DNA from: a virus
Taxonomy: Duplodnaviria; Heunggongvirae; Uroviricota; Caudoviricetes
DNA: 26,713 nt
Strand: one strand, 5' to 3'
IMG/VR virus record: IMGVR_UViG_3300043411_002784
Every line of letters starts with the position of its first letter. Within the stretch, counting starts at the first letter, position 1. The position numbers were made by a program, and so were the translations under genes. The notes under the pieces were generated by a model. It saw nothing but the letters and a program-made list of their open reading frames with translations. It was not told the origin of the DNA and made no database searches. This document shows, piece after piece, positions 1 to 13,171 of this stretch.

Positions 1-480
1 TGGCTCGCCGCGCTGATCGTGAACGGCCATCCTGGCGTCAATACGATCACAGGCTGGGAGTTGCAATACGCCGAGAGCACTTGGCTCCGACTGTGCGTCA
101 GCAGCATTCTCGCCTGGCGCGAGCGCTACGGGCTGAACTGCTCGCAGCTGGACGCCGACAGGACGTTCACAATGTTCTTGGAACGCAAGTACGCGGAGCA
201 GCAGACGACGCTGGAGCAGGCTCACCGCGAGGCGCAGGCCGATTCAGGGGTGGCCGGGCATGAGCCTGACGACGGTTACACGGCCGAGTCGCCCGCCGAA
301 CTGACGCCCGAGACCATCCAGCAGCTGGCGGAGTTTCGGACCGTGTCGCCGCACGAGCTGCGTCCGCCGCGCTTCGGCGAGGACGTTCAGACGGCGATCG
401 ACTGTTTCGACGTCGAGGCCCTCTACCCTGCGCTGGATCCTGCAGAGATCGACGCGGCCGAGCTTGACTCCGAGTTCTAG
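1..480 (+). CDS. Hypothetical protein, acidic C-terminus; probably truncated at the window start
   Basis: Frame is open from base 1 to TAG at 478-480; ORF track 19..480 is in this frame. Confidence 0.7.
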   Translation, partial: WLAALIVNGHPGVNTITGWELQYAESTWLRLCVSSILAWRERYGLNCSQLDADRTFTMFLERKYAEQQTTLEQAHREAQADSGVAGHEPDDGYTAESPAELTPETIQQLAEFRTVSPHELRPPRFGEDVQTAIDCFDVEALYPALDPAEIDAAELDSEF

Positions 481-864
481 CCGGCCCTATCGTGCACATA
501 GCTCTGCAGTGCCTGGCCCTTGCGCCTGCGGAGATCTGACGGCAAGGAGCTTCTAGGCCATTCTTGGCCGACGATGCACGCGCTGTGCAGAACCCCGGCA
601 GGGGCCCAATGTCACCCGGCCAACTGGCCGTTGACCGTTGGACGACCACTAGCGAGTTGGTGCGCGCAGGAAGGGACCTGATCCTTGCTGGATCCTTGCG
701 GGATCCGGGGCAGTTGGTGCCTTTTGCGACATTGGCCCGTTGGAAACTGGTCGTCAAAGAGGTTGTTTTTGATCGTCTTACGACCCTGTTTCACGACGTC
801 ACGAAACGCTTTCCGAGACAGCTCAGGCTAAACGATAACTCGTTATAACAAGGAGGTTTACGAG

Positions 865-1269
865 ATGAACCAGACCATCACGCCCGCCATGCGTAAGTCG
901 GCGCAACAGGTCATGATCAACTACGTCAACGGGCTCGCCGAGCGGGTGCCTGCTGGCACCAAGGCCGCGGAGGTCGCCAGGAACGCCCAAACGTGCACGA
1001 GGCTCCAAAAATTAGCGCAGGTCATGACAGGCGGTAAGGACGTCTATCAGGCCGTCGCGCAGGTCTTCGCGGACAAGAATGCGGCCTACCAGCACACCGT
1101 CATCACGGGTCTGGCCCGCGGCTTGATGCGGCATCTTGCTAGCAAGCAGGCCGGCGTGAAGGGCGTTTCGCGTCATCCGAGCGTCAACGTGACCGGCAAG
1201 ACCACCTCGCCCTCCTCGGGCGTCAGCACGGTCGGCCCCAAGATGAAGACCATGCCCGCCTCCTGCTAG
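865..1269 (+). CDS. Hypothetical basic protein (134 aa)
   Basis: ATG preceded by AAGGAGG and an AT-rich promoter-like stretch (CGTTATAAC). Confidence 0.85.
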   Translation: MNQTITPAMRKSAQQVMINYVNGLAERVPAGTKAAEVARNAQTCTRLQKLAQVMTGGKDVYQAVAQVFADKNAAYQHTVITGLARGLMRHLASKQAGVKGVSRHPSVNVTGKTTSPSSGVSTVGPKMKTMPASC

Positions 1270-1283
1270 GCGGACAACTCGTC

Positions 1284-1355
1284 CACGCGTTTGTCTCCCG
1301 TCGAGGTTCGTCTCACCCCCCTGACGGCCTCACGGGAGACAAACCGTGCTTTTAA
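1284..1355 (+). terminator. Long bulged hairpin followed by a T-tract; probable intrinsic terminator or RNA structure
   Basis: GTTTGTCTCCCGT (1289-1301) pairs with ACGGGAGACAAAC (1332-1344); extra helices CACG/CGTG and GAGG/CCTC; followed by CTTTTAACTT. Confidence 0.7.
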
Positions 1356-1387
1356 CTTCCTACTCTGTAAACGTTTAAGGAGATCCC

Positions 1388-1696
1388 GTGGCGAACAAAC
1401 AACGCGTCTACATTAGCTGGACAACTCAGTACATGGACGCGAAGAAGGCGTCCAACAGCACGGACACGAGCACAGGCATTGAGGTCGACAACGTCGAGCG
1501 CATCGACGTGCTGGACGGCCTGATGCTAAAGCTCACCCGTCGCCGTTCGTCGGGCGACCCCAAGGACGTCTTCGGCGAGCTGATGGGCGAGGTCGTGTCG
1601 TACATCCCCCTGCGGGACGTCGCCCGCATCGTGGCGATCGACGGCCGCACGCCTCAGGGCATGCACGACAAAGCGTTCATGACCGCCCTCGCCTAA
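1388..1696 (+). CDS. Hypothetical protein (102 aa)
   Basis: GTG start with AAGGAG Shine-Dalgarno. Confidence 0.85.
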   Translation: MANKQRVYISWTTQYMDAKKASNSTDTSTGIEVDNVERIDVLDGLMLKLTRRRSSGDPKDVFGELMGEVVSYIPLRDVARIVAIDGRTPQGMHDKAFMTALA

Positions 1697-1707
1697 CGCG
1701 AGTTTAG

Positions 1708-1735
1708 CCCTGTCTGCGGGGTTCGATCGCAGGCC
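1708..1735 (+). repeat. Pseudoknot repeat, single copy (S1 CCC/GGG, S2 GTCTGCG/CGCAGGC)
   Basis: CCC-T-GTCTGCG-GGG-TTCGAT-CGCAGGC-C; both stems pair; 11 nt after a stop codon. Confidence 0.85.
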
Positions 1736-1753
1736 GCCAAACAGCAACTTTTA

Positions 1754-1767
1754 TTATCACGTGATAA
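1754..1767. promoter_or_regulatory. Operator-like perfect 14-bp palindrome TTATCACGTGATAA
   Basis: Perfect palindrome in an AT-rich intergenic region; near-identical copy at 7071. Confidence 0.65.
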
Positions 1768-1792
1768 CTTTCTCCCCGTAAGGATACGAATC

Positions 1793-2491
1793 ATGGGAAA
1801 CCCAGCTTATTCCGAGCAGTACATCGCCGCCAACGCCCCCGACGAAGCGGCTCAGGCCACGCTGCCGATCGTGCTCTCGGACGAGTTCGAGATCTACGAG
1901 CATCACGGCGCGCGAGTCGCCGTGCGCAGCGCCCTCAAGGGCACGCATCGCGACCTGTGCCTCTGCTACGACTGCGAGAGCTTCGCCCCTGCGGAGGAAG
2001 GCCAGGCGTCGGGCTGCCCCATCGCCAACGCGGTCTATGAGAACGCGGTGAAGTACGACCTGGTGAGCCCTGTGCTCGAATGCCCTCAGTTCAAAGAGAG
2101 CGTCGTGGCGGGAAGCAAATACCGTCCCGAAGGCAGCGTCGAGAGGACGCCCCTGGGCATCCTGACCCCGGTGACGATCAACCGCGCCATCCAAGGAATG
2201 CTCGGAGCGCTGCTAAACGCCGAGGTCGTAGCGACCAGCGCCGTGCGTTGCGCTGATCCCGACAATTGCTGCGGCAACCCCGAGGCTTGCGTCAGCGACG
2301 TCTCGATCACGAGCGCCGAGGGCTGTTGCGGGGGCGGCTGCTCCGAAGGCCCTCCTGAAGCCACGTGCATGGGCGACCCTGCATTCTGCGAAGTAGGCGT
2401 CGCCTGCCCCAACCAGGGGGCGTGCGATCCTGAGTCGCCCATTGGCGTCGCTTACGACGGCGTCAATTACGAAGACGCGGACGAGGACTAA
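1793..2491 (+). CDS. Cys-rich (16 Cys), acidic putative metal-binding protein (232 aa)
   Basis: AAGGA upstream of ATG; CLCYDC...CP...CP motif and C-terminal CC/C clusters. Confidence 0.8.
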   Translation: MGNPAYSEQYIAANAPDEAAQATLPIVLSDEFEIYEHHGARVAVRSALKGTHRDLCLCYDCESFAPAEEGQASGCPIANAVYENAVKYDLVSPVLECPQFKESVVAGSKYRPEGSVERTPLGILTPVTINRAIQGMLGALLNAEVVATSAVRCADPDNCCGNPEACVSDVSITSAEGCCGGGCSEGPPEATCMGDPAFCEVGVACPNQGACDPESPIGVAYDGVNYEDADED

Positions 2492-2504
2492 GACCAGTCG
2501 CCGA

Positions 2505-2607
2505 GCCTGTCGCCCGGCTTAGTAGGGCGGACGGATAGTCGGCAACGGTTATCCGCCAACGAGGCAATGAGTGAATTAGGCCTGTCGTCCGGCTTGATGC
2601 GGCGACC
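2505..2607 (+). repeat. Pseudoknot repeats, 2 copies (2505, 2580)
   Basis: GCC-T-GTCGCCC-GGC-TTAGTA-GGGCGGA-C and GCC-T-GTCGTCC-GGC-TTGATG-CGGCGAC-C. Confidence 0.85.
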
Positions 2608-2649
2608 CGGCAGCTTATAAGGCAAGAAGCCAACAAGGGAACCAAGAAG

Positions 2650-5600
2650 ATGCCTACGATGCCCAACGGAGCCACGCTGCCTCAGTCGGCGTTGCCCATG
2701 CAGCCTACGCTTCGGCCTCAGGCCCCTAACCCTGCGGCGCAGATCAACACGCAACAGGCGGGCGGACCCGGTCAAGGCGGAGCGGCGACGGCGGCAGGCG
2801 TCCAACAGGTGGCTCAACAGCAGGGCGTGGGCGTCCCCTCGCCCACGCACGGGCAAGCGGCTCCCCCTCCACAGCCTGCCGCGGGGCCTCCCGCCGCGGC
2901 CTCGCCCCCGGTGACTCCGCCCCCAGTTCCCCCAGGCTTCGCTCCCAACAGTCAGGGCCAGGTGGTCTACCCGCCAGGCCAAGGCCCCGTCACGGAAAAG
3001 GCCAAGCAATTGATTCCCCAACCCAACGCTCCCATCGCTGCGGAAGCGCGTGGTCCCCAAGGCATGCCCATGAACGATCCCTCGCTCAACCCGTTCAACG
3101 TGCGGACGGCGGCTGACTGGGATGCCAGGCTCAAGCAGCTCAAGGAGCGTCGCGATCCTCTGGGCCTTGAGGAAGACCCCGACCATGATCCCGAGCGGGA
3201 TTGGGTCGGTAAGCACGCCATGGCTGCCGCTGGCCTTGATACGGCGGCCGAGAAAGCGCTGGACATCGCTAAGCGTGCCGCCTCGCTTCATCAGGGCGGC
3301 GTGGGCCAAGGCCTGCAACCAACGCCTGCCGTCGGGCTTCATAAGACGGCCTGGCACCATTCGCAACCTGTCGCCGGGACTAATGCGGCGACCCCCGTGA
3401 AGAATGCCTCTGAGCGTGCCGTCGCGCTTCGTACGTCCGGCCCTGTGTGTCGGACCGTGCAAGACGGCCATGGCTACGCAGTCGTTAAGCATGCCGCCTT
3501 GCTTCAAGTTGGCGGCCATGTCGTCGGACCTATGGACGACGAGCCTGTCGACGGGCTTCATACGTCTGACCAACTCCAGCAGGACCAAGAGACGGAAGGC
3601 GACGAGCTGATGGCTCGGGCTGCGACTCTGGGTAAGATGGCGGGTCTATTGTTCAAGACGGCTGGCCAGGGGGCGTCCCCATCGATCGCCGTCGCGGGCT
3701 ACACGGCTAACGGCCAAAACGCCCTCGACCAGGTGAACCGGGCCATTGCCCGCCGCCAGCCGCGCCGCCCGTACGTCGAGAACGACAAGCAATCCGCCGC
3801 GCCGGGGCTCGTCCCGCAGCCGGCCATGCCGACGGCTCCCGCGTTGCCGCCGGCGTTCGCCATGCCTGCCGCCGGGCCTAGTACGACGGCCGCCAAAGTG
3901 AACGCAATGCCGTCCGCCGCCTCCGCTCGTCCCACGATCCAGACGGCTCCGGCTGCTGGAGCGATCCGTCCCGCTGTGCCTGCCGCGCGGCCTGGTAGCG
4001 CTGCCCCGATGCAGACTAATGCCAAGCCCAAGCCCCTGGTCCCCGCGGGCACGGGCTCCAGCAAGATGCCCGCCGTCCCAGGCGGGATCAAGAAAGCGTT
4101 CTTCGGTCCGCTCGGCGGGGGCATGGTTGGCGCTGCCGCCGGTCGCGTAGGCACGAAGATACTCGGAGCGATGACTGGGCCGTCGACTCCCGCCGCTGCG
4201 CCCAAGCCGCCAATGCCGCCAACGCCTAAGCCGGCCCCGACGCCGGCTGCGGCCATGAAGCCGCCGGCCCCTGCGCCGGCGAAGCCGCCGATGCACGTCG
4301 TGCAGGATCCCAAGCTCATGCGCCAGGGCGTGACGCCGACGCCGCCTCCTACGCCTGCCGCACGGCCTAGCAGCGCCGGCTTCGGCTCACTGACTCCGCC
4401 TGCCGTGCCGCCGATCAGTCGCCCGCCGATCACGCCGCAACCGGGGCTAGGCGTGCCGCCAGTTAAGATGCCGCAGAAAACGCCGCAACAGCCGTCGATG
4501 GACGAGTTCTGGCGGTTCCGGTCGCGGATGCCTCAGAACATGGATCCCGGGTTCACGCCGAACTTCACGCCGCAACAGACGTGGCTGGAACAGGAGCTGG
4601 GCATGCCCGCCGGCTCGTGGAACATGGATCCCGGGTTCACGCCGGACGTCCCGCCGCAGCAGTCGCCGGCCGAGAAGATATTGGGGGTGCCTGCCGGGTC
4701 GCTCAACAAGGACCCTGGCATGACGCCGCCGCAGCCTGCCGGTCCCGCAGCTCCCGACATGCTGCAGCAGCTAAAGGCGAGCGAGTTCAACAAGGAAGCC
4801 TGGCTCGGGGCCTTGGCCCGCGGAGCCGGCAAGATGCTGGGCGGAGCCGGCAAGGCCGTGGGCGGAGCTGCAGCTCGGCTCGAAGGGGCCGCCGTACCCA
4901 AACTGCTGTCCAAGATGGCGCCCGCTGCGCCTGCCGCCGCGGCCAAGCCCGTGGCTCAGGGCCTTGAGTCGCTCGCCATGCGTCCCGCACAGGCCGCTGG
5001 TCAGGCCGCTAGCAAAACTCTACCCATGGCCGCCGACTCGACCATTGCCATGAGCCCCGCCGTCCGCCAGCAAGCGATGGACGCCGCCAAGCGGAACGCC
5101 ATCCAACTGGAAGGCCGTCGCGCGGCGGCCCAGGGACAGCCCTGGAACCTCTCAGGAGCCCCCTCGCCCGCTCAGGCGGCTGCGGCGCGGGCTCGCACGG
5201 GACTTCCGCCTGGCGCCGCTCCTAGCGGCCCTGGGGCGGGCGTACGCCCCGTGCCTGGTCAAACGCCTCCCGTCGGGCCTGGTATGACGGGCACTGTCCC
5301 GAAGCAGCCAGGAGCGATGCCTGCCGCCGGGCCTAGTGCGGCGGCGACGGACCCACTGTCGGCCGGTCTCGGCGGCCGCGCCGCCGCACTCGGTCGTCAA
5401 GCCGGCAAAGCGACGCTCAATACGGCCAAGAGCCTCCCGGGCGCCGTGGCCATGGGTGCTGGCATGACCGCGGGCGTCCAAGGGCTCGATGCGGCGATGA
5501 CGGCGGCCGATCCCCAGGCTCCCGGCAACCAAGGGGGCGGCGGGGGCTTCATGGATTCGATCAAGGGAACGGTCGGCTCGTGGCTGGGGGTCGACCCTGG

Positions 5601-6300
5601 CAGCGTGAAGGCGTTCCAAGGACTCCAGGGCGAGCTCGACGCTGCGGGCATCAAGGTGATGGACGACAACGGGCAGCCCTTGGGGCTCAACGACATCATG
5701 ACCCAGGCGATGCAGAGTCCCCAGGGCCAGAAGATGCTCGTCGAGCGAGCCCCCGAGATCATGGCGCAAGCCTTGGAGGATCCCGAGAAGGCGGGACCGC
5801 TGATGGAAGGCTTCGCCGGCTCGCTGGCCAGCCTCTCGCCTGAAGCGAAGGCCCGGTTGGCGGCTGATCCCAACGCTGCGGGCATCCTGTCGTCCCTCAT
5901 GGGCGGCGGCGAGGGGATGATGGGCGGCCTCGCCGGCGGCGCGCAGCAGCTCTGGACGATGTTCCAGCAGCTCGATCCGACGCTGCAGCTGCTCATCGGG
6001 GGCGGCCTCATCGCCGGGTTGACGGGCCTGCTCAGCGGCAGCGGCATGCTGACCGCCGGCGGACTCGGGGCGCTGGCGGCGGGCGGCCTCGGAGCCTATT
6101 ATGGCGACGAGATCGGCGCGATGTTCGGGGGCGGCGAGCAACAGCAGCCGCAGCAACCTCTGGGCCCGCGATCGATGGCTCCCATGCCGTCGCTCGTGCC
6201 TCAGCAGTTGTTTGGGCAGGGCGGCCCGCGGGGGCTGATCAACCCCGCTTTGAAGATGCAAGGCCTCGACCCCAACACGGGGATGCCTCAAGGATCCTAA
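2650..6300 (+). CDS. Large Pro/Ala/Gly/Gln-rich low-complexity protein (1216 aa) with a C-terminal Gly-rich hydrophobic segment; possibly virion-internal
   Basis: 3.6-kb uninterrupted ORF; internal 28-aa repeats in frame; hydrophobic LLIGGGLIAG...GGLGAYYG near the end. The functional label is inference only. Confidence 0.85.
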   Translation: MPTMPNGATLPQSALPMQPTLRPQAPNPAAQINTQQAGGPGQGGAATAAGVQQVAQQQGVGVPSPTHGQAAPPPQPAAGPPAAASPPVTPPPVPPGFAPNSQGQVVYPPGQGPVTEKAKQLIPQPNAPIAAEARGPQGMPMNDPSLNPFNVRTAADWDARLKQLKERRDPLGLEEDPDHDPERDWVGKHAMAAAGLDTAAEKALDIAKRAASLHQGGVGQGLQPTPAVGLHKTAWHHSQPVAGTNAATPVKNASERAVALRTSGPVCRTVQDGHGYAVVKHAALLQVGGHVVGPMDDEPVDGLHTSDQLQQDQETEGDELMARAATLGKMAGLLFKTAGQGASPSIAVAGYTANGQNALDQVNRAIARRQPRRPYVENDKQSAAPGLVPQPAMPTAPALPPAFAMPAAGPSTTAAKVNAMPSAASARPTIQTAPAAGAIRPAVPAARPGSAAPMQTNAKPKPLVPAGTGSSKMPAVPGGIKKAFFGPLGGGMVGAAAGRVGTKILGAMTGPSTPAAAPKPPMPPTPKPAPTPAAAMKPPAPAPAKPPMHVVQDPKLMRQGVTPTPPPTPAARPSSAGFGSLTPPAVPPISRPPITPQPGLGVPPVKMPQKTPQQPSMDEFWRFRSRMPQNMDPGFTPNFTPQQTWLEQELGMPAGSWNMDPGFTPDVPPQQSPAEKILGVPAGSLNKDPGMTPPQPAGPAAPDMLQQLKASEFNKEAWLGALARGAGKMLGGAGKAVGGAAARLEGAAVPKLLSKMAPAAPAAAAKPVAQGLESLAMRPAQAAGQAASKTLPMAADSTIAMSPAVRQQAMDAAKRNAIQLEGRRAAAQGQPWNLSGAPSPAQAAAARARTGLPPGAAPSGPGAGVRPVPGQTPPVGPGMTGTVPKQPGAMPAAGPSAAATDPLSAGLGGRAAALGRQAGKATLNTAKSLPGAVAMGAGMTAGVQGLDAAMTAADPQAPGNQGGGGGFMDSIKGTVGSWLGVDPGSVKAFQGLQGELDAAGIKVMDDNGQPLGLNDIMTQAMQSPQGQKMLVERAPEIMAQALEDPEKAGPLMEGFAGSLASLSPEAKARLAADPNAAGILSSLMGGGEGMMGGLAGGAQQLWTMFQQLDPTLQLLIGGGLIAGLTGLLSGSGMLTAGGLGALAAGGLGAYYGDEIGAMFGGGEQQQPQQPLGPRSMAPMPSLVPQQLFGQGGPRGLINPALKMQGLDPNTGMPQGS
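2874..2901 (+). repeat. Pseudoknot repeat inside CDS
   Basis: GCC-T-GCCGCGG-GGC-CTCCCG-CCGCGGC-C; both stems perfect. Confidence 0.7.
3222..3571 (+). repeat. Pseudoknot repeat cluster inside CDS, 7 copies (3222, 3273, 3324, 3366, 3414, 3489, 3543)
   Basis: S1 variants GGC/GCC, GCG/CGC, GCC/GGC, GCA/TGC; start-to-start distances 51, 51, 42, 48, 75, 54 nt are all multiples of 3. Confidence 0.85.
3864..4381 (+). repeat. Pseudoknot repeats inside CDS, 3 dispersed copies (3864, 3978, 4353)
   Basis: e.g. GCC-T-GCCGCGC-GGC-CTGGTA-GCGCTGC-C at 3978. Confidence 0.65.
4537..4728 (+). repeat. 84-nt (28-aa) tandem repeat, about 2.3 copies, NMDPGFTP...LG(M/V)PAGS
   Basis: AACATGGATCCCGGGTTCACGCCG identical at 4537 and 4621; degenerate third copy at 4705. 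Confidence 0.9.
5265..5346 (+). repeat. Pseudoknot repeats inside CDS, 2 copies (5265, 5319)
   Basis: GCC-T-CCCGTCG-GGC-CTGGTA-TGACGGG-C and GCC-T-GCCGCCG-GGC-CTAGTG-CGGCGGC-G. Confidence 0.7.
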
Positions 6301-6805
6301 GCCTGTCGTCTGGCTTCGTAGGGCGACCAATCGGTCCAGCGTGCAGACGCCAGGACTCGATCGTCGTCGGACTTGGAGACGGCCGTGTGAGTGTGCGCCT
6401 AAGCCTGTCGTCTGGCTTCGTAGGGCGACGGCTAGCCGGTAGCCTGGCCGGCGGCAAAGACGACCAAGATGCTGTGCCTGCCGTCTGGCGTTGTAAGACG
6501 GACGTCGGTCGTTGTCTAGCCGGCCGTTGGTCTGCTCGTGCCTGCCGTCCGGCTTGATAGGACGAGCCAAAATCCGCATCCGAGTGCTCGTGCCTGCCGT
6601 CTGGCTTGTAAGACGGCCAATAGGGGGAAGGATTGAGCTTGCCGCCGAGCTTCGTACGTCGGCCCGACTTCAAGTGTCACTGAGCCTGCCGCCTGGCTTC
6701 GTAAGGCAGCCTCGATGCCGCAACCGGTCGTGCCTGCCGTCTGGCTTCGTAGGACGGCCGAACGCGTCTTGGACCTGAGCTTGCCGTCGAGCTTTGTAGG
6801 CGGCC
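6301..6805 (+). repeat. Pseudoknot repeat array, first part, 9 copies (6301, 6403, 6476, 6540, 6592, 6637, 6684, 6732, 6779) with unique spacers
   Basis: Typical unit GCC-T-GCCGTCT-GGC-TTCGTA-GGACGGC-C; starts immediately after TAA of the large ORF. Confidence 0.95.
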
Positions 6806-6840
6806 TCCGTGCCGCAAATTGACGGACAAGAAAGAAGAAA

Positions 6841-6941
6841 GCCGGAGTAGCTCAAATGGTAGAGCGGCGGGAGTGACCGCGGCGAAACCCTATTACTGCT
6901 GCAGCAGATGGGTAGTGCGGGTTCGAGTCCCGTCTCCGGCG
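6841..6941 (+). tRNA. tRNA-like RNA with intact acceptor, D and T arms but a non-canonical anticodon arm and oversized variable region (possibly degenerate tRNA-Ser(TGA))
   Basis: GCCGGAG/CTCCGGC acceptor stem; TA-GCTC-AAATGGTA-GAGC D arm; GCGGG-TTCGAGT-CCCGT T arm; discriminator G; no encoded CCA. Confidence 0.75.
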
Positions 6942-6945
6942 TTGA

Positions 6946-7752
6946 GCCTGCCGCCCGGCGTCGTTGGGCGGCCGGGGGTGATCTCGATTTCGCAATCTGA
7001 TCGCGCCTGCCGCCTGGCGTCGGGCCTCGTACGACGGCCGATGGGGTCGGGGCAGCCCATAGCTAAAAAATTATCACATGATAAGTTTGTCGCAGGACTT
7101 TGTTCCGCGACCTTGTGGCCACTGAGTTCGAGCCTGCCTGCGGGCTTCGTACGCCGGGCGCACCTGGAGACGCCGTCTTCGCCTATGTCTGCCGCAAGAC
7201 TTTGACCTGCGGCCCACGAGACCGTGCGGGTTGCGGCCTCAGCCATGAACGCTCGCGCCTGTCGACGGGCTTCGTACGCCGGCCTGACTGGGACGACGCC
7301 GACCGCCGGATCTGGTAAGCTGATTCGCTACTACGCTCTGCCGTCGAGCTTCGTCCCACGGCCTTGCGATCAGGGGCAACGACGGCCTACCATCGCGATT
7401 CCGCAATCAGACGGCCTTCGCAGGAAAGACATTACGCTTGCCGTCGAGCTTTGTTCGCCGGCCTGCTCGCAGCTCCTCGCTGCGCCAGAACGTGCCGCGT
7501 CGTTTGCTCACGCGGCCCATCGTATCGCACCGGTTTGCGCCTGCCGTCGGGCCTCGTGCGTCGGCTTGAGCTTGCCAGAGGTCCTGGTATGCTCGCAGCC
7601 ATGCTTGCCGTCGAGCTTCGCATCGCGGCCAAACGGACCCGCTGCCGACGGACCCGATGTCGACGGACTGAATGCAGCTACTCGCTGCGTGCGGCGTCGC
7701 CTCGTAACGCCGCCATCGTCTCGTGCTTGTCGCCTGGCCTCGCAGGGCGGCC
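6946..7752 (+). repeat. Pseudoknot repeat array, second part, 12 copies (6946, 7005, 7132, 7187, 7257, 7335, 7436, 7490, 7539, 7603, 7687, 7725)
   Basis: Includes S1 variants GTC/GAC (7187), ACG/CGT (7490), GCG/CGC (7687), GCT/AGC (7436, 7603). Confidence 0.92.
7071..7084. promoter_or_regulatory. Operator-like near-palindrome TTATCACATGATAA
   Basis: One mismatch to the 1754 palindrome; preceded by A6. Confidence 0.6.
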
Positions 7753-7797
7753 ACAATGTAACCGGGATCCTCCCCTCATTTCCTCAGGAGACGTCCG

Positions 7798-8133
7798 ATG
7801 CTGAGCACCGTATTCATCGACGCGATTCACGGCACGCTGTTCCTCAAGGGACTCGCGCTGCTGCAAGGCCTGCTGATCTACATCATGCTGGTTCGCTGCT
7901 CGGGCCTCGGCCCCAGTCATTCGACGGCGACGCTCTACCACAACACGGAGCAGCGGCTGATCTATGCGCTGCTCGCCGTCGGCGCGGTCTACGTCCAGCT
8001 GGGCCTGCTCTGGCACTGGTTCGAGAAGGCGCTGGACAACGGCCCGTTGTCGGGGCTGCTGCAGGACGTCTACAAGCTGCTGTTCGACACCTACACCGTT
8101 TGTTGTGCTACGCCTGCCGGCGGGTTTTGTTAG
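7798..8133 (+). CDS. Small integral membrane protein (111 aa)
   Basis: AGGAG Shine-Dalgarno; 2-3 hydrophobic stretches; the stop lies inside the 8112 repeat copy. Confidence 0.8.
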   Translation: MLSTVFIDAIHGTLFLKGLALLQGLLIYIMLVRCSGLGPSHSTATLYHNTEQRLIYALLAVGAVYVQLGLLWHWFEKALDNGPLSGLLQDVYKLLFDTYTVCCATPAGGFC

Positions 8134-8366
8134 CCGGCCCCAAATGTGCGGCGACGAGCGCAAGCGCACTCGTTGCGCACTCGTCAGGCCTGCCAGCGGG
8201 CCTTGTTCGCTGGCCCGAAAGATGATGGCAAATATGCCTGCCGCGCGGCTTTATTGCGCGGCCCGGCACTCGTTTGTCTGCGTGAACTGCGCCTGGCATC
8301 AGGCCTTGTTTGATGTCCCCCGCTCTTTTTTTGCGCTACGCCTGCCGACGGGCTTCGTCGTCGGCC
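8112..8366 (+). repeat. Pseudoknot repeats, 5 copies (8112, 8188, 8236, 8291, 8340)
   Basis: S2 stems differ in sequence yet pair: GCCAGCG/CGCTGGC, GCCGCGC/GCGCGGC, GGCATCA/TGATGTC, GCCGACG/CGTCGGC. Confidence 0.95.
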
Positions 8367-8396
8367 ATTGATCTTAAGGGCAACAAAGGACCGCCT

Positions 8397-8819
8397 ATGA
8401 CATTTAGTGAACTTGACGCCGCCGATCAGCAGCGTCGCCAGCGGGACGAGGACCGCGAAGCCAAAAGCCTGGCCGCCCGGCAGGCGTTCATCGAGCTGCT
8501 GGCCGACCCCGAGGTCCGCAACGGCGTCGACACGGTCGCAAAGGCCCAGGAGCTGATCGATCAGATGGAAGAACAGATCCCTGGCGAGTCGCTGCCGCCT
8601 TGCTACGACTGGGCGGTGGCGAAGCGCAACCACCTGGAGAAGTCCTTGACGCTAGACGATCTCGCCAACGCAAGGCATGAAGCGATGCAGGCCAACGTCG
8701 ACGAGCAGCTGGGCTTCTCGCCCACGCCCGAGGCCCAGACCCGCATGATCCGCCGGCTGATCGAGCTGCTGGCTCGCGCCGAGGTCACCATTGAAATGCT
8801 GCAGAAGTCATGCCGCTGA
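8397..8819 (+). CDS. Hypothetical helical protein (140 aa)
   Basis: ATG at 8397 after AAGGA, in frame with track ORF 8310..8819. Confidence 0.85.
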   Translation: MTFSELDAADQQRRQRDEDREAKSLAARQAFIELLADPEVRNGVDTVAKAQELIDQMEEQIPGESLPPCYDWAVAKRNHLEKSLTLDDLANARHEAMQANVDEQLGFSPTPEAQTRMIRRLIELLARAEVTIEMLQKSCR

Positions 8820-9091
8820 AACGCTACCTGACCAACTGCACCGTCCAGGGCAACGGCTCGGCGATCACGGCGATGATCGACGTTGCTCGCGAGATCACCC
8901 GGAAGACGTTTCTCAAGCACGTCGACCGCGCGTCGCTCGTCGAACTGGAGCGCTCTCTGGGCTACGCGGCCCATCCTCGCCAGGGGCTCACCCTGGCGGG
9001 AGACTATCACGTTCAGTATGCGAAAAGCACGTTTCGCGGCCGCCCCTGCGTCTACCTGACCTGGAGCTGCATCGAGTACGTGTTCGTCTGA
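8810..9091 (+). CDS. Hypothetical protein (93 aa)
   Basis: Overlaps the upstream stop region; globular-looking sequence; TGA directly abuts a repeat. Confidence 0.85.
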   Translation: MPLKRYLTNCTVQGNGSAITAMIDVAREITRKTFLKHVDRASLVELERSLGYAAHPRQGLTLAGDYHVQYAKSTFRGRPCVYLTWSCIEYVFV

Positions 9092-9119
9092 GCCTGCCGG
9101 CGGGCTTGCTTCGCCGGCC
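9092..9119 (+). repeat. Pseudoknot repeat abutting the stop codon
   Basis: TGA-GCC-T-GCCGGCG-GGC-TTGCTT-CGCCGGC-C. Confidence 0.9.
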
Positions 9120-9187
9120 CGCCGATATTTAGCCGCCTGGCGTGTCGCCGGCGGCGCGTGTCACCCTCTCTTAGAAGGAACGTTGTG

Positions 9188-9691
9188 ATGAGAAATCTAT
9201 TGTTGAGCCTTGTCGCCTTGACGCTTGTTGCGGCCGGGCAGTCCCACGCAGCGACCCTGACGCTGACCAACCAGTCGGCCAATTCGACCTTCTTTGCGGT
9301 GGCCCCCGAGCAAGACTACTTTGATTACGACCACCGCTACGCCTCGCTGAACCAGACCGGCGCACCCGCGGTCGACGTGCAGACGAGCACCTTCTGGACC
9401 GACGCCAATCAGTTCTGGCTCTTCGGGGCCGACAACAAGGGCGTCTTGCACACGATCGACCTGAACCCGATGCCGACGCTGGTCAACGTGACGCTGCACC
9501 AGATCGTCAACGGTCAGCAGCGCAGCACCTACCAGTATTTCTTCGGTCAGACGACCAACGGCGTGATCGCCGAGCAATGGCTCCCCGTGGTGACGCGGAC
9601 GTTGGCGCCCGCCGGGGTGCCGGAACCGTCGACGCTGGCCTTGGCCGCTTTGGGCCTCGTGGGCGCAGCGTTCCGTCGTCTGCAGCAGTAA
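9188..9691 (+). CDS. PEP-CTERM sorting domain-containing secreted protein
   Basis: N-terminal signal peptide (MRNLLLSLVALTLVAAGQSHA) and C-terminal VPEPSTLALAALGLVGAAFRR (PEP, transmembrane helix, basic tail). Confidence 0.9.
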   Translation: MRNLLLSLVALTLVAAGQSHAATLTLTNQSANSTFFAVAPEQDYFDYDHRYASLNQTGAPAVDVQTSTFWTDANQFWLFGADNKGVLHTIDLNPMPTLVNVTLHQIVNGQQRSTYQYFFGQTTNGVIAEQWLPVVTRTLAPAGVPEPSTLALAALGLVGAAFRRLQQ

Positions 9692-9706
9692 ACTGAGCGA
9701 GCCCGC

Positions 9707-9736
9707 GCCCGTCGCCGTGATCGCACGGCGGCGGGC
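9707..9736 (+). terminator. 13-bp GC hairpin after the PEP-CTERM gene (no T-tract)
   Basis: GCCCGTCGCCGTG-ATCG-CACGGCGGCGGGC. Confidence 0.5.
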
Positions 9737-9749
9737 AGGTTCGAGCTAA

Positions 9750-10068
9750 GCCTGGCGTTCGGCTTCGTCAGGACGCCCCGGTATCACGGCGCCCAGGCGT
9801 CGCGGTGCGTCGGAACGCCCGTAGCGGTGGAGATTAGACCAAGCCTGTCGTCTGGCTTCGTAGGGTGACTGCGAATGTCACCCGTGAAGGCGACCCGGCG
9901 GATGCGATGAACCTGTTGACGAATTAAGCCTGTCGTCTGGCTTCATAGGCCGACCAACCGGGTCGCCAGTGGAAGACGACCCCAAACATTGCCTGTTCGC
10001 GTCTGTCGACGGACTTCATGCGTCGGCCCTACCCCCATATCTGTGTCCGGCCAGTTCATAGCCGGGCC
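9750..10068 (+). repeat. Pseudoknot repeats, 5 copies (9750, 9843, 9928, 10001, 10041)
   Basis: Includes GTC/GAC (10001) and CTG/CAG (10041) S1 variants. Confidence 0.92.
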
Positions 10069-10103
10069 GTCCGCTTGCTGATGTCAAACCTAAGGACAAA
10101 CTC

Positions 10104-10301
10104 ATGTCATTAGCCCCAGCCAAAATCAAGAAACGACTAGAGTATCTCCGCGGCGAGCTGCGGGCTGAGTGCATCAGCCTGGAGGAGCTCGCGGAGCTGC
10201 AAGATCTCGCTCCGCACATTGACCCAGGCGACGTCGAGCTGCTGGAAGCGGCGGGCGTCCCTGAGTTCCCTGAAGACGATGCGGGCCAGGACGCTTCGTA
10301 G
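10104..10301 (+). CDS. Small hypothetical protein (65 aa)
   Basis: AAGGA Shine-Dalgarno; amphipathic RLEYLRGELRAECIS...LLEAAGVPE. Confidence 0.8.
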   Translation: MSLAPAKIKKRLEYLRGELRAECISLEELAELQDLAPHIDPGDVELLEAAGVPEFPEDDAGQDAS

Positions 10302-10327
10302 CCTGGACCATCTCCGAATGAACCTGT

Positions 10328-10448
10328 GCGTGTCGGGCCGCCTGATAGCCCGGACGAACTGTGCCTCTGTTTCCGCGTGCCAGGCCGCCTCGTCGTCTGG
10401 ACCATCTCGGCACGACTCGAAGCGTGCCCCGTCGCTTCGTGCGGGGCC
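10328..10448 (+). repeat. Pseudoknot repeats, 3 copies (10328, 10375, 10422), all with S1 GCG/CGC
   Basis: e.g. GCG-T-GCCCCGT-CGC-TTCGT-GCGGGGC-C; 47-nt period. Confidence 0.9.
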
Positions 10449-10502
10449 ATCCCAGCCGCCGTTGTTTCCCTTTCACCTCTTTTCACCCTTGGAGAATCTT
10501 GC

Positions 10503-10892
10503 ATGAATCTCAGTCGCGCCGCTCAGTACGCCATCGTGTCGATGGCTCAGCTACGCACGACCGGCGACCCCGTCCCCTGCTCCCATCTGGCCAAGCGGGG
10601 CGACATGCCCGAACGGTTCCTGCTGCAGGTGCTGCGCAGCCTGGTGACCGCCGGCCTCGTGAAATCCCGTCGCGGCGTCGACGGGGGCTACAACCTGGCC
10701 AAACGGCCGAACGAGATCACCCTGGCGATGATCATCGAAGCGATCGACGGTCCGGTCGCCGTCGGATCCTTCGAGGTGCTGCAAGCGTTGCCCTCGGACG
10801 CTCTGTCGCACGTCGCCCGGGCGCTGAAGCACGCCAACAGCGAGTCGCTGCGCCAGCTGTCGCGAGTCACGCTTTCCCAGCTCGCCTGTTAA
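10503..10892 (+). CDS. Rrf2-family winged-helix transcriptional regulator, lacking the Fe-S Cys triad
   Basis: YA...LA...MPERFLLQVLRSLVTAGLVKSRRGVDGGYNLAKRPNEITLAMIIEAIDG matches the Rrf2 signature; GGAGA Shine-Dalgarno. Confidence 0.92.
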   Translation: MNLSRAAQYAIVSMAQLRTTGDPVPCSHLAKRGDMPERFLLQVLRSLVTAGLVKSRRGVDGGYNLAKRPNEITLAMIIEAIDGPVAVGSFEVLQALPSDALSHVARALKHANSESLRQLSRVTLSQLAC

Positions 10893-10902
10893 GCGTTATC
10901 AT

Positions 10903-11071
10903 GCCTGCCGTCGGGCTTCGTGCGACGGCCGTTGGCCGCAGTCGTCTTAAGCCTGCCGAGCGGCTTCGTAGTTCGACCGATAGGTCTAAGCGACCTGTCG
11001 CCCTTCGCAAAAGTCGCGCTCGGACGTGGCTGGATCTGATTACGCCTGCCGTCAGGCTTTGTAGAACGGCC
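10903..11071 (+). repeat. Pseudoknot repeats, 3 copies (10903, 10951, 11044)
   Basis: e.g. GCC-T-GCCGTCG-GGC-TTCGTG-CGACGGC-C. Confidence 0.92.
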
Positions 11072-11100
11072 TTAGCCCCCTCTGGCTGCGGAACTGAACT

Positions 11101-11418
11101 ATGTCACAACCTCTCTGCGATCTCTTCAACGAGACGATGGACAAGCTCCGCGACCTCCAGCGGCAGCACGGACTGCTGAAGCTGGCGTTCGGGCTCGATC
11201 CCGAAGACCGGATCGTGGACATTGGCGAGGACAAACGGAGTCTGCTCGTCGATAATCGAGCAGGCTGGCGTCGCCGCGTGTGGAGCGCGGGCGAGACGGC
11301 CCTGGAGCGCGAGCACGCCTCGTCCCTGTCCGGGGACTTGGTCGCGTCACTGGCGAGTTGCGGCGGGTTGCGCATTACGACGGACAACGTCGCAGCGGAG
11401 GTTGCGACCCAAGATTAG
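11101..11418 (+). CDS. Hypothetical protein (105 aa)
   Basis: ORF fits the + strand tiling between repeat clusters. Confidence 0.75.
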   Translation: MSQPLCDLFNETMDKLRDLQRQHGLLKLAFGLDPEDRIVDIGEDKRSLLVDNRAGWRRRVWSAGETALEREHASSLSGDLVASLASCGGLRITTDNVAAEVATQD

Positions 11419-11429
11419 GAGCGTCGGTC

Positions 11430-11705
11430 ATGGAAGGCCTCGATCCCGTACTGATTGGATTTCTGCTGGGGGCCGTCGTCGGCGGCCTGCTGGGCTGCCT
11501 CGGGGGTTATTGTCTGGGGCTGGGTCGCGTGCGTCGCGAGGCGGTCGAGCGCGGCTTCGGCCGCTTCCAGCTCTACTACGTCGAGGCGGCGTTCGATCAG
11601 CCGGGGACGACCATCGGCCGCTTCGTGTGGCGGGGCGACCCGGAGTGGGGAGACGCCTGCGACTATCAGCCGCCGCACTTGGCGACGATTGACGAAGAAA
11701 CCTAA
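11430..11705 (+). CDS. Single-pass membrane protein (91 aa)
   Basis: AGGAG then ATG at 11430; N-terminal hydrophobic Gly-rich helix. Confidence 0.8.
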   Translation: MEGLDPVLIGFLLGAVVGGLLGCLGGYCLGLGRVRREAVERGFGRFQLYYVEAAFDQPGTTIGRFVWRGDPEWGDACDYQPPHLATIDEET

Positions 11706-11733
11706 GCCTGTCGTCGGGCTTCGTACGACTGCC
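11706..11733 (+). repeat. Pseudoknot repeat abutting the stop codon
   Basis: TAA-GCC-T-GTCGTCG-GGC-TTCGTA-CGACTGC-C. Confidence 0.9.
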
Positions 11734-11787
11734 GCAACACAGTGTTAGGCTACGACGACCTGTCACTTGACTTACTTGGAGAACTAT

Positions 11788-12198
11788 ATGGACCGTAGAA
11801 CCGCTTTGCGTTGCCTAGCCGGAGCTGCGGCGATGCCTTTGGTTGCGCCTGCAATCGCTTCTGCCGTCGTCGTTCCGTCTCCCGACGCCATTTGGCGAGG
11901 CCTGGAGGTTTCGAGCGTCGCCGGTAAGCATTGCGTCGCTCGTTACGACGGGCTCGCCGGCACGATCGTGGCCGGGCTGTGGGACGAGCCGTTGTCGGTT
12001 GAAGACGAAAATCGGTGGCTGGACGATCCTCGTTGGTTCTATACGTCGAAGCCTTACAGCGTGTGGGCGATCGACGTGCCGAAAAATCTGACGTCGCAGG
12101 AGCTGACCGGCTACTACCAGCAGGCGCGGGACGGGTTTCAAGCGTTCCCGAGTCTGCCGTCGAGCTTGCCGCGACGGACCCTTGCGCACGTCCTTTAA
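11788..12198 (+). CDS. Protein with a twin-arginine (Tat)-type signal peptide
   Basis: GGAGA Shine-Dalgarno; MDRRTALRCLAGAAAMPLVAPAIASA. Confidence 0.75.
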   Translation: MDRRTALRCLAGAAAMPLVAPAIASAVVVPSPDAIWRGLEVSSVAGKHCVARYDGLAGTIVAGLWDEPLSVEDENRWLDDPRWFYTSKPYSVWAIDVPKNLTSQELTGYYQQARDGFQAFPSLPSSLPRRTLAHVL

Positions 12199-12326
12199 GC
12201 CTGCCGTCCGGCTTCGTATGACGGCCCATCCGCACAATCTTCTCTACGCCTGCCGTCCGGCTTGATGCGGCGGCCTCGCCAATTTCTGCACGGACCAAAC
12301 CTGCCGTCTGGTTTCCCATGTCGGCC
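12152..12326 (+). repeat. Pseudoknot repeats, 4 copies (12152 degenerate and in-gene, 12199, 12248, 12299)
   Basis: 12199 abuts TAA; 12299 has S1 ACC/GGT. Confidence 0.88.
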
Positions 12327-12370
12327 TGTCGCAAGCATGAGTGCGGCAAAAGATAAGAGGGGAACGCCGG

Positions 12371-12592
12371 ATGAGATTCAACCTGCCGTTCCTGCTCTGG
12401 CTCGCCGCCTTCGTCGCCGTTGCGGCGTTTAGCGGCCAATGTTGGTACGATGCTCGTCCGGACAAAGCGGGCGACGCCAGATATATCTTTGATTCCGTTG
12501 GCTGGGGAGTCACCGTCGCTGCGCAGGCCTGCATCGTGTTCCCGGCGATTCTCGGCAGCCTCTGGCTCGCCTGGCGTCGTCGCAAACCTTAA
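12371..12592 (+). CDS. Small two-helix membrane protein (73 aa)
   Basis: GAGGGG Shine-Dalgarno; two hydrophobic segments and a basic tail. Confidence 0.8.
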   Translation: MRFNLPFLLWLAAFVAVAAFSGQCWYDARPDKAGDARYIFDSVGWGVTVAAQACIVFPAILGSLWLAWRRRKP

Positions 12593-12619
12593 CCTGCCGC
12601 CTGGTTTCGTCGGGCGGCC
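12592..12619 (+). repeat. Pseudoknot repeat overlapping the stop codon (S1 ACC/GGT)
   Basis: ACC-T-GCCGCCT-GGT-TTCGTC-GGGCGGC-C. Confidence 0.9.
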
Positions 12620-12637
12620 AATGTCGTAATTGTCGTC

Positions 12638-13171
12638 ATGAAACACCGCCAACTGCTTGCCACCGTGCTGATCGACGCGCTCGCTCCCGAGGCCGTCGGT
12701 CCCGAGCTGCTCGACGCGACGATCAATCACGCCTGCACGAAGGTGCTCAACGCCCTCTACTCGGAGGAGCTCGATCTCACCGTGAAGATGCCGAAGGGTC
12801 TGACCGTTAAGATCAACGTCGGCTTGGTCACCTTCGGGCGGCCCGTGCTCGTTCACGGCAACGCGACGGGCATGAGCCCCCATCGGCCGATCGTTCACGC
12901 TCACTTCGAGCCTGACGAGTCGACGGATCTGGACATCTACCGCTCGATGCACGAGGCGCTCAGCGCCATGCCCGCGCTCTACCAGGCGAACTGGGAGCGC
13001 GATAACCTGTTGCTGCAAGCCTGCCGCGACGTCGTCGCCGTGCACTCGGGAGACGAGTTCCTGGTGAAGAGCCTCGACCAGCGGCTGCGGCAATCACACC
13101 CGTTCGCCCAGGAGAAGGATCTCGATGAACCGGCTACTAATCTTCCTGCTGTTGGCTGCCCTGACGGCTAG
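12638..13171 (+). CDS. Hypothetical protein (177 aa)
   Basis: ORF track; consistent + strand tiling. Confidence 0.75.
   Translation: MKHRQLLATVLIDALAPEAVGPELLDATINHACTKVLNALYSEELDLTVKMPKGLTVKINVGLVTFGRPVLVHGNATGMSPHRPIVHAHFEPDESTDLDIYRSMHEALSAMPALYQANWERDNLLLQACRDVVAVHSGDEFLVKSLDQRLRQSHPFAQEKDLDEPATNLPAVGCPDG

Follow-up and report, generated by a model that had tools for sequence, protein, structure and literature searches.

A 26.7-kb stretch of DNA from the IMG/VR virus record IMGVR_UViG_3300043411_002784, part of a 90.7-kb contig and hereafter called the window, carries a family of repeats of ~27 nucleotides (nt) with the geometry of an H-type RNA pseudoknot, at least one copy of which lies in nearly every intergenic region between positions ~2500 and 12650. 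Thirteen further copies lie inside a single open reading frame (ORF) of the same genome, which is treated here as a phage-like mobile genome, and all 13 occupy the sense strand in one codon phase. We consider it highly probable that these copies are dual-coded, that is, that the same letters would serve both as RNA structure and as protein code, and the fold, judging from the comparison of three diverged genomes, appears to be under purifying selection in the sense messenger RNA (mRNA). The best overall explanation, which we regard as probable, is that a family filling the intergenic regions is embedded in frame in this one gene, P0001, where the element would also be read as protein.

The repeat family and its in-frame copies

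The repeat unit has the architecture S1a(3)-U-S2a(7)-S1b(3)-loop(5-7)-S2b(7)-C, in which the loop of a 7-bp hairpin (stem 2, S2) pairs with the 3 nt directly upstream of the hairpin (stem 1, S1); the usual intergenic form is GCC-U-GCCGNCN-GGC-UUCGUA-NGNCGGC-C. With its 1-nt loop 1 over a 7-bp stem and its 6-nt loop 3 crossing a 3-bp stem, the unit has sound geometry for an H-type pseudoknot. The 5' half of the unit, CCTGYCGNNNGGCYT, is present 44 times in the window at no more than one mismatch, compared to 1.2 occurrences expected, with 43 of these on the + strand, and no Rfam family matches the repeat. Among 54 intergenic copies collected from the window and from two syntenic homologous metagenomic contigs, L138 and L139, changes on both sides of the pair were found for all three S1 pairs and for six of the seven S2 pairs, and the covariation score was 0.545, against 0.169 with shuffled partners and ~0.04-0.15 with partners slid by 1-3 columns; these copies were picked by a pairing descriptor, which biases the percentage of paired positions but does not trivially affect the diversity of pair types. 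The stems contain 37 G.U against 11 A.C combinations (symmetric criterion; p = 2e-4), and therefore it is the sense strand that folds, as would be expected of RNA.

A covariance model, R1, whose training set was these 54 intergenic copies alone, was run unfiltered over the three loci (the model start being the element start minus 3), and 153 of the 156 matches at E <= 1 were on the + strand. Within the ORF, R1 reported exactly 13 sites at E <= 0.04 (E 4e-6 to 0.04; 17.9-35.5 bits), each of them on the sense strand with (start-2650) mod 3 = 2, denoted phase 2; two marginal matches (4926 and 4795) had E > 0.07. The 13 sites are genuine members of the intergenic repeat family. R1 does not treat S1 as paired. 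The gene and its copies are as follows, with the encoded peptide given for each copy.

2650..6300, + strand: P0001, host of the in-frame copies, a Pro/Ala/Gly/Gln-rich ORFan of 1216 amino acids (aa)
6298-6300, + strand: TAA, stop codon of P0001
2874..2901, + strand: copy 1, PAAGPPAAA; R1 27.0 bits, E 3e-4; S1 3/3, S2 7/7; orthologous in all three genomes
3222..3249, + strand: copy 2, AAAGLDTA; R1 30.8 bits; S1 variant GGC/GCC; S2 7/7
3273..3301, + strand: copy 3, RAASLHQGG; R1 25.9 bits; S1 variant GCG/CGC, 3/3; 7-nt loop; S2 7/7
3324..3351, + strand: copy 4, PAVGLHKTA; R1 35.5 bits, E 3.6e-6, the top-scoring ORF copy; the minimum-energy fold is the S2 hairpin
3366..3393, + strand: copy 5, PVAGTNAAT; R1 18.2 bits, E 0.03; S1 2/3; S2 7/7; fold z-score -2.5
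3414..3442, + strand: copy 6, RAVALRTSG; R1 27.6 bits; degenerate S2; fold z +0.75
3489..3517, + strand: copy 7, HAALLQVGG; R1 19.0 bits, E 0.02; S1 variant GCA/UGC; S2 6/7
3543..3570, + strand: copy 8, PVDGLHTSD; R1 26.4 bits; S2 5/7
3864..3891, + strand: copy 9, PAAGPSTTA; R1 31.4 bits; S2 6/7; L138 orthologue at 4138
3978..4005, + strand: copy 10, PAARPGSAA; R1 31.8 bits; S2 6/7; weak single-copy fold; no clear L138 orthologue
4353..4380, + strand: copy 11, PAARPSSAG; R1 17.9 bits, E 0.04; S2 ~4/7; the S2 hairpin is not the minimum-energy fold
5265..5292, + strand: copy 12, PPVGPGMTG; R1 23.1 bits; S2 7/7
5319..5346, + strand: copy 13, PAAGPSAAA; R1 29.7 bits; same peptide in all three genomes

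A structural descriptor lacking the U spacer proved too loose (139 matches on the + strand and 80 on the - strand) and was tightened to a strict form demanding S1 3/3, the U spacer, and S2 of at least 6/7. Nine of the 13 copies match the strict form, with at least six S2 pairs; those missed are 3366 (S2 7/7 but S1 2/3), 3543 (S2 5/7), and the degenerate 3414 and 4353, the last of which is the weakest of all and is probably decaying. In the homologous ORFs, R1 found 11 matches at E <= 0.05 in L138 (13 with two at E 0.07-0.1) and 32 in L139 (41 by a relaxed descriptor), and all 56 of the model-defined in-ORF copies in the three genomes are in phase 2.

An earlier note on this DNA, made from the sequence alone, had reported 13 copies in one codon phase, a recurring peptide, and spacings in the non-coding array that are not multiples of three (3n). 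The common phase was reproduced by arithmetic on the start positions, by R1 trained on intergenic copies, and by scans with the motif and with the descriptor, in which every copy detected had that phase; the quoted peptide repeats are present in the translation, and the array spacings are indeed not 3n. The note had cautioned that Pro-Ala codons might bias detection toward this phase and had set codon shuffling beforehand as the refuting test. When codons were permuted among identical residues, preserving both the protein and its codon usage, the window ORF yielded 0.71 +/- 0.81 phase-2 descriptor matches (maximum 4) against 9 observed, with none of 500 shuffles reaching 9, so that the test did not refute the claim. 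The homologues behaved alike (12 observed against 0.81 for L138 and 31 against 2.07 for L139, the observed number being reached in 0/500 shuffles in each), and permutation of whole codons in the window ORF gave 0.39 +/- 0.63 phase-2 matches. The shuffled values being far below those observed, Pro/Ala codon bias is not the explanation. Nor is the uniform phase forced by an open frame alone, since accidental ORFs running through the non-coding arrays contain copies in mixed phases: 2,1,1,1,2 in L138 6615-7019 and 0,0,2,2,0,1,1,0 in window 7224-8225. The former, a called gene of 134 aa, and window 7224-7797, the 5' part of ORF 7224-8225, are probably false gene calls, because the repeats are stop-poor; G+C content at third codon positions (GC3), checked on the window ORF alone, is flat.

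The ORF at 2650-6300 itself is, by the comparison of sequences, a real gene, because its homologues share Met1, the sense frame is the single frame open across the region in all three genomes, and substitutions are in excess at third codon positions. The single full-length homologue found by a word-indexed search, P0003 (1190 aa), is encoded by L138, a syntenic 9-kb JGI contig, and is 41% identical overall, with the N-terminal 168 residues 71% identical from Met1. The third relative, P0005 (>=1327 aa, that is, at least this length; L139), was found in a metagenome scan and shares the start MPTMPNGA, so the same starting Met is common to all three. The true P0001 start is thus ATG 2650, and the database call P0002 begins 140 codons too late. 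Between the window and L138, codons 1-155 differ at 70 third positions against 30 and 25 at the other two, and codons 701-1216 at 223 against 143 and 117. Translation of the region is suggested by this conservation. A search of 1.84 billion representatives recovered P0003, a fragment from the L139 lineage, and nothing else, and no further relatives came from protein-based scans of viral and genome contig collections, from a search for shorter homologues, or from a megablast of window 1-13000 against phage records. P0001 has no Pfam or PHROG match.

It could be argued that the in-frame copies are an artefact, arising either from CCT GCC codon bias or from a spurious ORF in GC-rich DNA that might hold a minus-strand gene at 2488-3588. 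Over 2700-3750, GC content peaks at the first codon position rather than the third, and the antisense ORF 2488-3588 has gene-like GC3. However, neither shuffle control reproduces the matches, high GC at position 1 is expected of a Pro/Ala/Gly/Gln-rich protein, and the antisense frame is closed in both L138 and L139, whereas all three genomes keep the sense frame open from the common Met. The minus-strand gene was accordingly rejected, and we regard an artefact of either kind as extremely improbable.

The fold of the in-ORF copies in three genomes

In eight sets of positionally orthologous copies, 76 stem pairs are unchanged, 13 show compensatory changes, three differ on one side yet still pair, and four are broken. 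At pair 6 of S2 in copy 1 (2874), for example, G-C in the window corresponds to C-G in L138 and A-U in L139. The L138 orthologue of copy 2 (3222), at 3385, carries a compensatory U.G to A-U change, and that of copy 7 (3489) has GCG/CGC in place of GCA/UGC, a compensatory change in S1. Copy 12 (5265) differs from its L138 counterpart at 5281, which encodes PAGRPGMPA, by three compensatory pairs, and in copy 13 (5319) the three genomes agree in the peptide PAAGPSAAA but not in the S2 pairs, where the synonymous changes come in pairs. S1, which R1 left unconstrained, is intact in 53 of the 56 ORF copies (12 of 13 in the window), compared to 25.8 +/- 2.6 with shuffled partners, and this pairing is realized through eight pair combinations.

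Synonymous sites point in the same direction. Among columns with identical residues, four-fold degenerate sites are identical between the window and L138 in 35 of 45 cases (78%) within elements, against 186 of 387 (48%) outside (Fisher p = 1.4e-4); chance identity being 33%, the sites outside the elements are close to saturation. Base pairing in the in-ORF copies is beyond what the peptide requires, and the fold is probably maintained by purifying selection on the sense mRNA, in line with the large surplus of G.U over A.C. The dual coding proposed in the earlier note, a folded RNA that is also translated, gains support from the frame and phase kept in the homologues, from the compensatory pairs, and from the conservation of synonymous sites. 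On the protein side, the loops of in-ORF copies avoid the CGU and UGU triplets that are usual between genes.

Each copy is read as about nine codons with the pattern [P/A/R/H]-A-x-[G/S/A/L]-[L/P]-x-x-x-A/G/D. Since S1 and S2 extend across codons, base pairing is imposed on the protein: the first residue covaries with residues 4 and 5, P going with G, R with S or A, and H with L. Conversely, the selected unit might be the peptide, a repeat of ~10 residues (AxGLHxxD or PAAGPSAAA) whose RNA pairing would be an inherited relic with no present function. Conserved motifs fit such a view (LH..D in ~30 L139 units; PAAGPSAAA identical in three genomes), as do the loop triplets at the codon-6 position, which are CGT or TGT in 38 of 62 intergenic copies against 8 of 47 ORF copies, the latter having mostly CAT, GGT, or AGT; this shift away from Arg and Cys codons could reflect peptide selection or a subfamily effect. 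Yet synonymous shuffling at a fixed peptide reduces the descriptor matches from 9 to 0.7 and from 31 to 2.1, the synonymous codons of PAAGPSAAA differ among the three genomes and are nonetheless mutually complementary, and the covariation of residue 1 with residues 4 and 5 follows S1 pairing rather than protein chemistry. We therefore consider selection on the peptide without the RNA very improbable.

A further possibility, which we judge unlikely although less so than the preceding two, is that the copies are tolerated hitch-hikers, spread or homogenised by copy-paste or gene conversion and persisting here solely owing to a disordered Pro/Ala-rich protein that accepts any open-frame insert; overwriting by well-formed donor copies, and not a function in the mRNA, would then account for the intact stems. 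Several observations fit this view: as a sign of concerted evolution, the two PAAGPS copies of L138 (4138 and 5332) are identical in their core elements, which shows that conversion or recent duplication does occur, and the window pair is nearly so; copy number varies through tandem duplication (13, 11-13, and 32-41); and some window copies are decaying. P0001 is of low complexity and probably disordered, and an AF2 (AlphaFold2) model built without an alignment, a low-confidence, single-sequence prediction that gives a weak hint of disorder, has a mean pLDDT (predicted local distance difference test) of 45.8, with 27-37 across the repeat cluster. Against this stands the distribution of subtypes: PAAGPS (loop CUAGUR), KRAAxLH (S1 GCG/CGC), and AAxGL (S1 GGC/GCC) are common to the ORFs of all three diverged genomes and unlike the dominant intergenic type, and are therefore old residents rather than fresh imports. 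Moreover, the stems remain paired while synonymous sites outside are near saturation, and no other window gene contains a copy except for a weak one at 12149, so that strong selection against insertion elsewhere would be needed.

Several points nevertheless weigh against dual coding and the maintenance of the fold. Only three lineages were compared, the covariation rests on few independent comparisons, and the positional orthologues were our own choice from a gappy alignment. Copies within a genome are alike, and gene conversion could mimic both compensatory change and synonymous conservation without selection at each site. In the repeat cluster itself (codons 156-310), third positions show a weak excess over the other two (69 against 56 and 50). 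Folding energies of single copies are not separable from those of dinucleotide shuffles in this GC-rich sequence (z -2.5 to +1.3), and 3414, 3864, 3978, and 4353, taken as isolated 29-mers, fold no better than shuffles. The in-ORF loops differ from the intergenic UUCGUA consensus, and the ORF copies might have lost any job that depends on the loop. Finally, P0001 is an ORFan, and there is no RNA run among the sequencing runs that carry the sequence.

Copy number, intergenic arrays, and neighboring genes

In the L139 ORF, Tandem Repeats Finder detected periods of 48, 96, and 141 nt, all 3n, compared to 49 nt in the leader array, and about one-third of the protein is a translated repeat array. 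A diverged strain from a wastewater run (X3), represented by a single low-depth contig, shows net differences of 6 nt and 69 nt in the ORF. Copy number may rise and fall through unequal recombination between copies or through slippage; since every copy has the same phase, an unequal exchange leaves the frame intact, which accounts for the differing protein lengths (1190, 1216, and >=1327 aa) and partly for the uniformity of phase. Indels between the homologues take in entire repeat periods together with spacer and fit unequal recombination as well as insertion. The suggestion that the element helped to build the protein by in-frame insertion, as Rickettsia palindromic elements (RPEs) do, is supported in part, in that the array in L139 expanded via the 48-, 96-, and 141-nt tandem duplications. 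An insertion of another kind is seen in P0003, where ~85 residues (residues ~165-250; L138 ~3100-3400) absent from the window and L139 contain a CxxC...C..H zinc-ribbon-like motif with sub-threshold Pfam hints.

Intergenic copies flank almost every small gene; they follow immediately on stop codons and stand ~20-70 nt ahead of start codons. Those next to the long ORF are the following.

2505..2607, + strand: two intergenic copies in the 5' leader of the ORF (2505 and 2580); R1 24.9 and 33.1 bits
6301..6328, + strand: intergenic copy directly after the ORF stop, the first unit of the non-coding array; R1 40.6 bits

The non-coding array (6301-7760, + strand) comprises ~21 copies with unique spacers and has 20, 11, and 8 stops in its three frames, against zero in the coding frame of the in-ORF cluster (3222-3571). 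A 76-nt deletion (7382 to 7459) was observed in contigs of two independent runs, X2 and X3, each a single low-depth contig, and array copy number is therefore polymorphic. The X2 run, a groundwater metagenome from a different study, contains a near-identical genome over window 2400-8400, the assembly of which is split into pieces at repeat copies (2592, 2768/2874, 5433/5485, 6325, 6427, 7379, and 7507), so the repeats fragment short-read assemblies. Exact-pattern scans with 17 specified positions across viral and genome contig collections returned, besides L138, L139, and L140, only single-copy, chance-like matches and no other loci with several copies; R1 applied to Planctomycetota-labelled loci gave nothing convincing.

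Within the array, a tRNA-like sequence at 6841-6941 (+ strand) matches the Rfam tRNA model at 45.2 bits, covering 101 nt on a 71-position model with an insertion of ~30 nt; it receives no ARAGORN call, and a repeat copy starts from 5 nt past the end of the match (element start 6946). The element consensus (YUAAGCC) includes the UAA or UGA that directly precedes many copies, and several genes take this triplet as their stop codon (6298, 9089, 11703, and 12196). Of the 47 ORF copies, 14 are preceded by TAA, as are 11 of the 62 intergenic ones; in ORF copies including 3270 and 3486, the upstream UAA is out of frame, read as xxU AAG (Lys). The sole copy in another window gene, at 12149-12181 (+ strand) in ORF 11788-12198, scores 15.7 bits (E 0.12) and sits in the other open phase (frame b; codons CUG CCG ...), being read as SLPSSLPRRT near the C-terminus.

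The credible genes of the window are all on the + strand, short, and nearly all ORFans, and features from Pfam, PHROGs, PADLOC, and the ESM Atlas indicate no function for P0001 or its neighbors. Beyond a phage zinc-finger domain, the family matches in the window come down to two. One, a signal peptide together with a PEP-CTERM-like tail, belongs to a secreted protein encoded at 9188-9691, whose tail reads VPEPSTLALAALGLVGAAFRR; the other, to PHROG 24072, belongs to a probable Rrf2-type regulator at 10503-10892, the L138 counterpart of which has PF02082. Repeat copies lie on both sides of each. These two are host-like accessory genes in a phage-like context.

Possible function and relation to known systems

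Copies within the ORF would do the same cis-acting job as the intergenic ones, that of a structural or protein-binding module that punctuates or protects the transcript, and would act against degradation or processing in an unusually long message of 3.6 kb. This module is favored because intergenic copies lie directly after stops and shortly upstream of starts, but it is the least secure step of the explanation, one that we infer and put forward tentatively. We hold it possible, though doubtful, that the pseudoknot is a working RNA module, whether a binding site for a phage or host protein, a processing site, or a decoy for host RNA-targeting defence, that this module is selected as RNA also within coding sequence, and that its amplification builds the protein. 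A role as a stimulator of programmed -1 frameshifting was rejected: no slippery heptamer X XXY YYZ occurs in the 20 nt preceding any of the 13 copies, and the -1 frame stops 15-78 nt past the element start in 12 of 13. A CRISPR array was likewise rejected, the stems varying between copies, the spacing being irregular, and no Rfam CRISPR-DR match being found.

Functional RNA structures within viral ORFs, such as the picornavirus cre and the HIV RRE, are recognised by suppressed synonymous variation. They offer the nearest functional analogy, their nucleotides being constrained both as codons and as base pairs, with reduced synonymous divergence and covariation as in the copies described here. 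Unlike the present repeat, a multi-copy family in coding and non-coding parts of a DNA phage-like genome, they are single, unique elements of RNA viruses with known functions.

The nearest precedent is provided by RPEs which, together with intragenic insertions of MITE, ERIC, and BOX elements, are structured repeats that occur between genes and in frame and are read as peptide (PMC10969869). Like RPEs, the repeat described here is structured, present between genes and in frame, and peptide-coding, and may contribute to protein evolution; its in-frame, peptide-read position in one phase of a conserved ORF is of the RPE type. In contrast to RPEs, which measure ~150 bp, occur as single insertions in many unrelated genes, and have no reported selection on RNA pairing, it is 27 nt long, resides in a phage-like genome, and is limited to a single gene family with 13 to more than 40 copies in one phase and compensatory evolution. 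Insertion into many unrelated genes was not found, all strong coding copies being in one gene (the other is the weak 12149 copy).

T4-type promoter/stem-loop cassettes (PeSLs) flank accessory genes. REP elements, another class of stem-loop repeats, are 3' mRNA stabilisers (PMC3733652). With both classes the family shares strand-oriented stem-loops at the boundaries of small accessory genes, which makes them a plausible model for the intergenic copies. However, REPs have a GTAG or CGTC head by the palindrome, need a RAYT transposase, lie outside genes by definition, and lack a pseudoknot stem, and none of these features applies here. A REP/RAYT system was rejected: 43 of 44 motif matches are in one orientation, where REPs would stand in both or form REPIN pairs, GUA lies in the loop and not in the 5' flank of the stem, and no transposase domain was detected in the scanned ORFs.

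Arrays of small (36-nt) RNA pseudoknots are also known from ToxI type III antitoxins and a phage pseudo-ToxI mimic (PMC3475682). The resemblance lies in phage-borne arrays of small RNA pseudoknots, and ToxI copy number expands by slippage. ToxI arrays, though, are contiguous, near-identical, non-coding, and adjoin ToxN, whereas the stems here are varied, the spacers unique and variable, and many copies lie in an ORF. Within the 26.7 kb analyzed of the 90.7-kb contig, no ToxN-like protein was found and none of 10 neighboring proteins had a PADLOC match; with its irregular spacing and varied stems, the array was not accepted as ToxI-like. TIGR-Tas arrays are built from a fixed unit, in which two repeats of 8-12 nt alternate, separated by 9-nt spacers, and which is processed into 36-nt RNAs; a Nop-domain Tas gene lies nearby (PMC12045711). 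This identity was rejected as well: the variable segments here pair with each other, the unit spacing is 42 to more than 100 nt, and the Pfam-scanned window ORFs contain no Nop domain.

For annotation, the locus carries a warning: the database gene call is too short, assemblies break at the repeats, and nearby ORFs in the arrays are probably false genes. What is new is an uncatalogued repeat family, its setting in a phage-like genome, the in-phase arrays, and compensatory evolution. Repeats that act as both RNA and protein are known mainly from Rickettsia, where the RNA structure is not thought to matter, whereas here fold and frame appear to be kept together. The amino acid sequence of a large part of a protein would thus be dictated by base-pairing rules, residue 1 being tied to residues 4 and 5, and the locus may serve as a natural system for studying the limits that RNA structure places on protein evolution, the growth of low-complexity proteins from non-coding modules, and the role of a 27-nt pseudoknot. 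Should the pseudoknot prove to be a working RNA module, the message would be a protein template and a multivalent RNA scaffold at once, a mode not described for phages.

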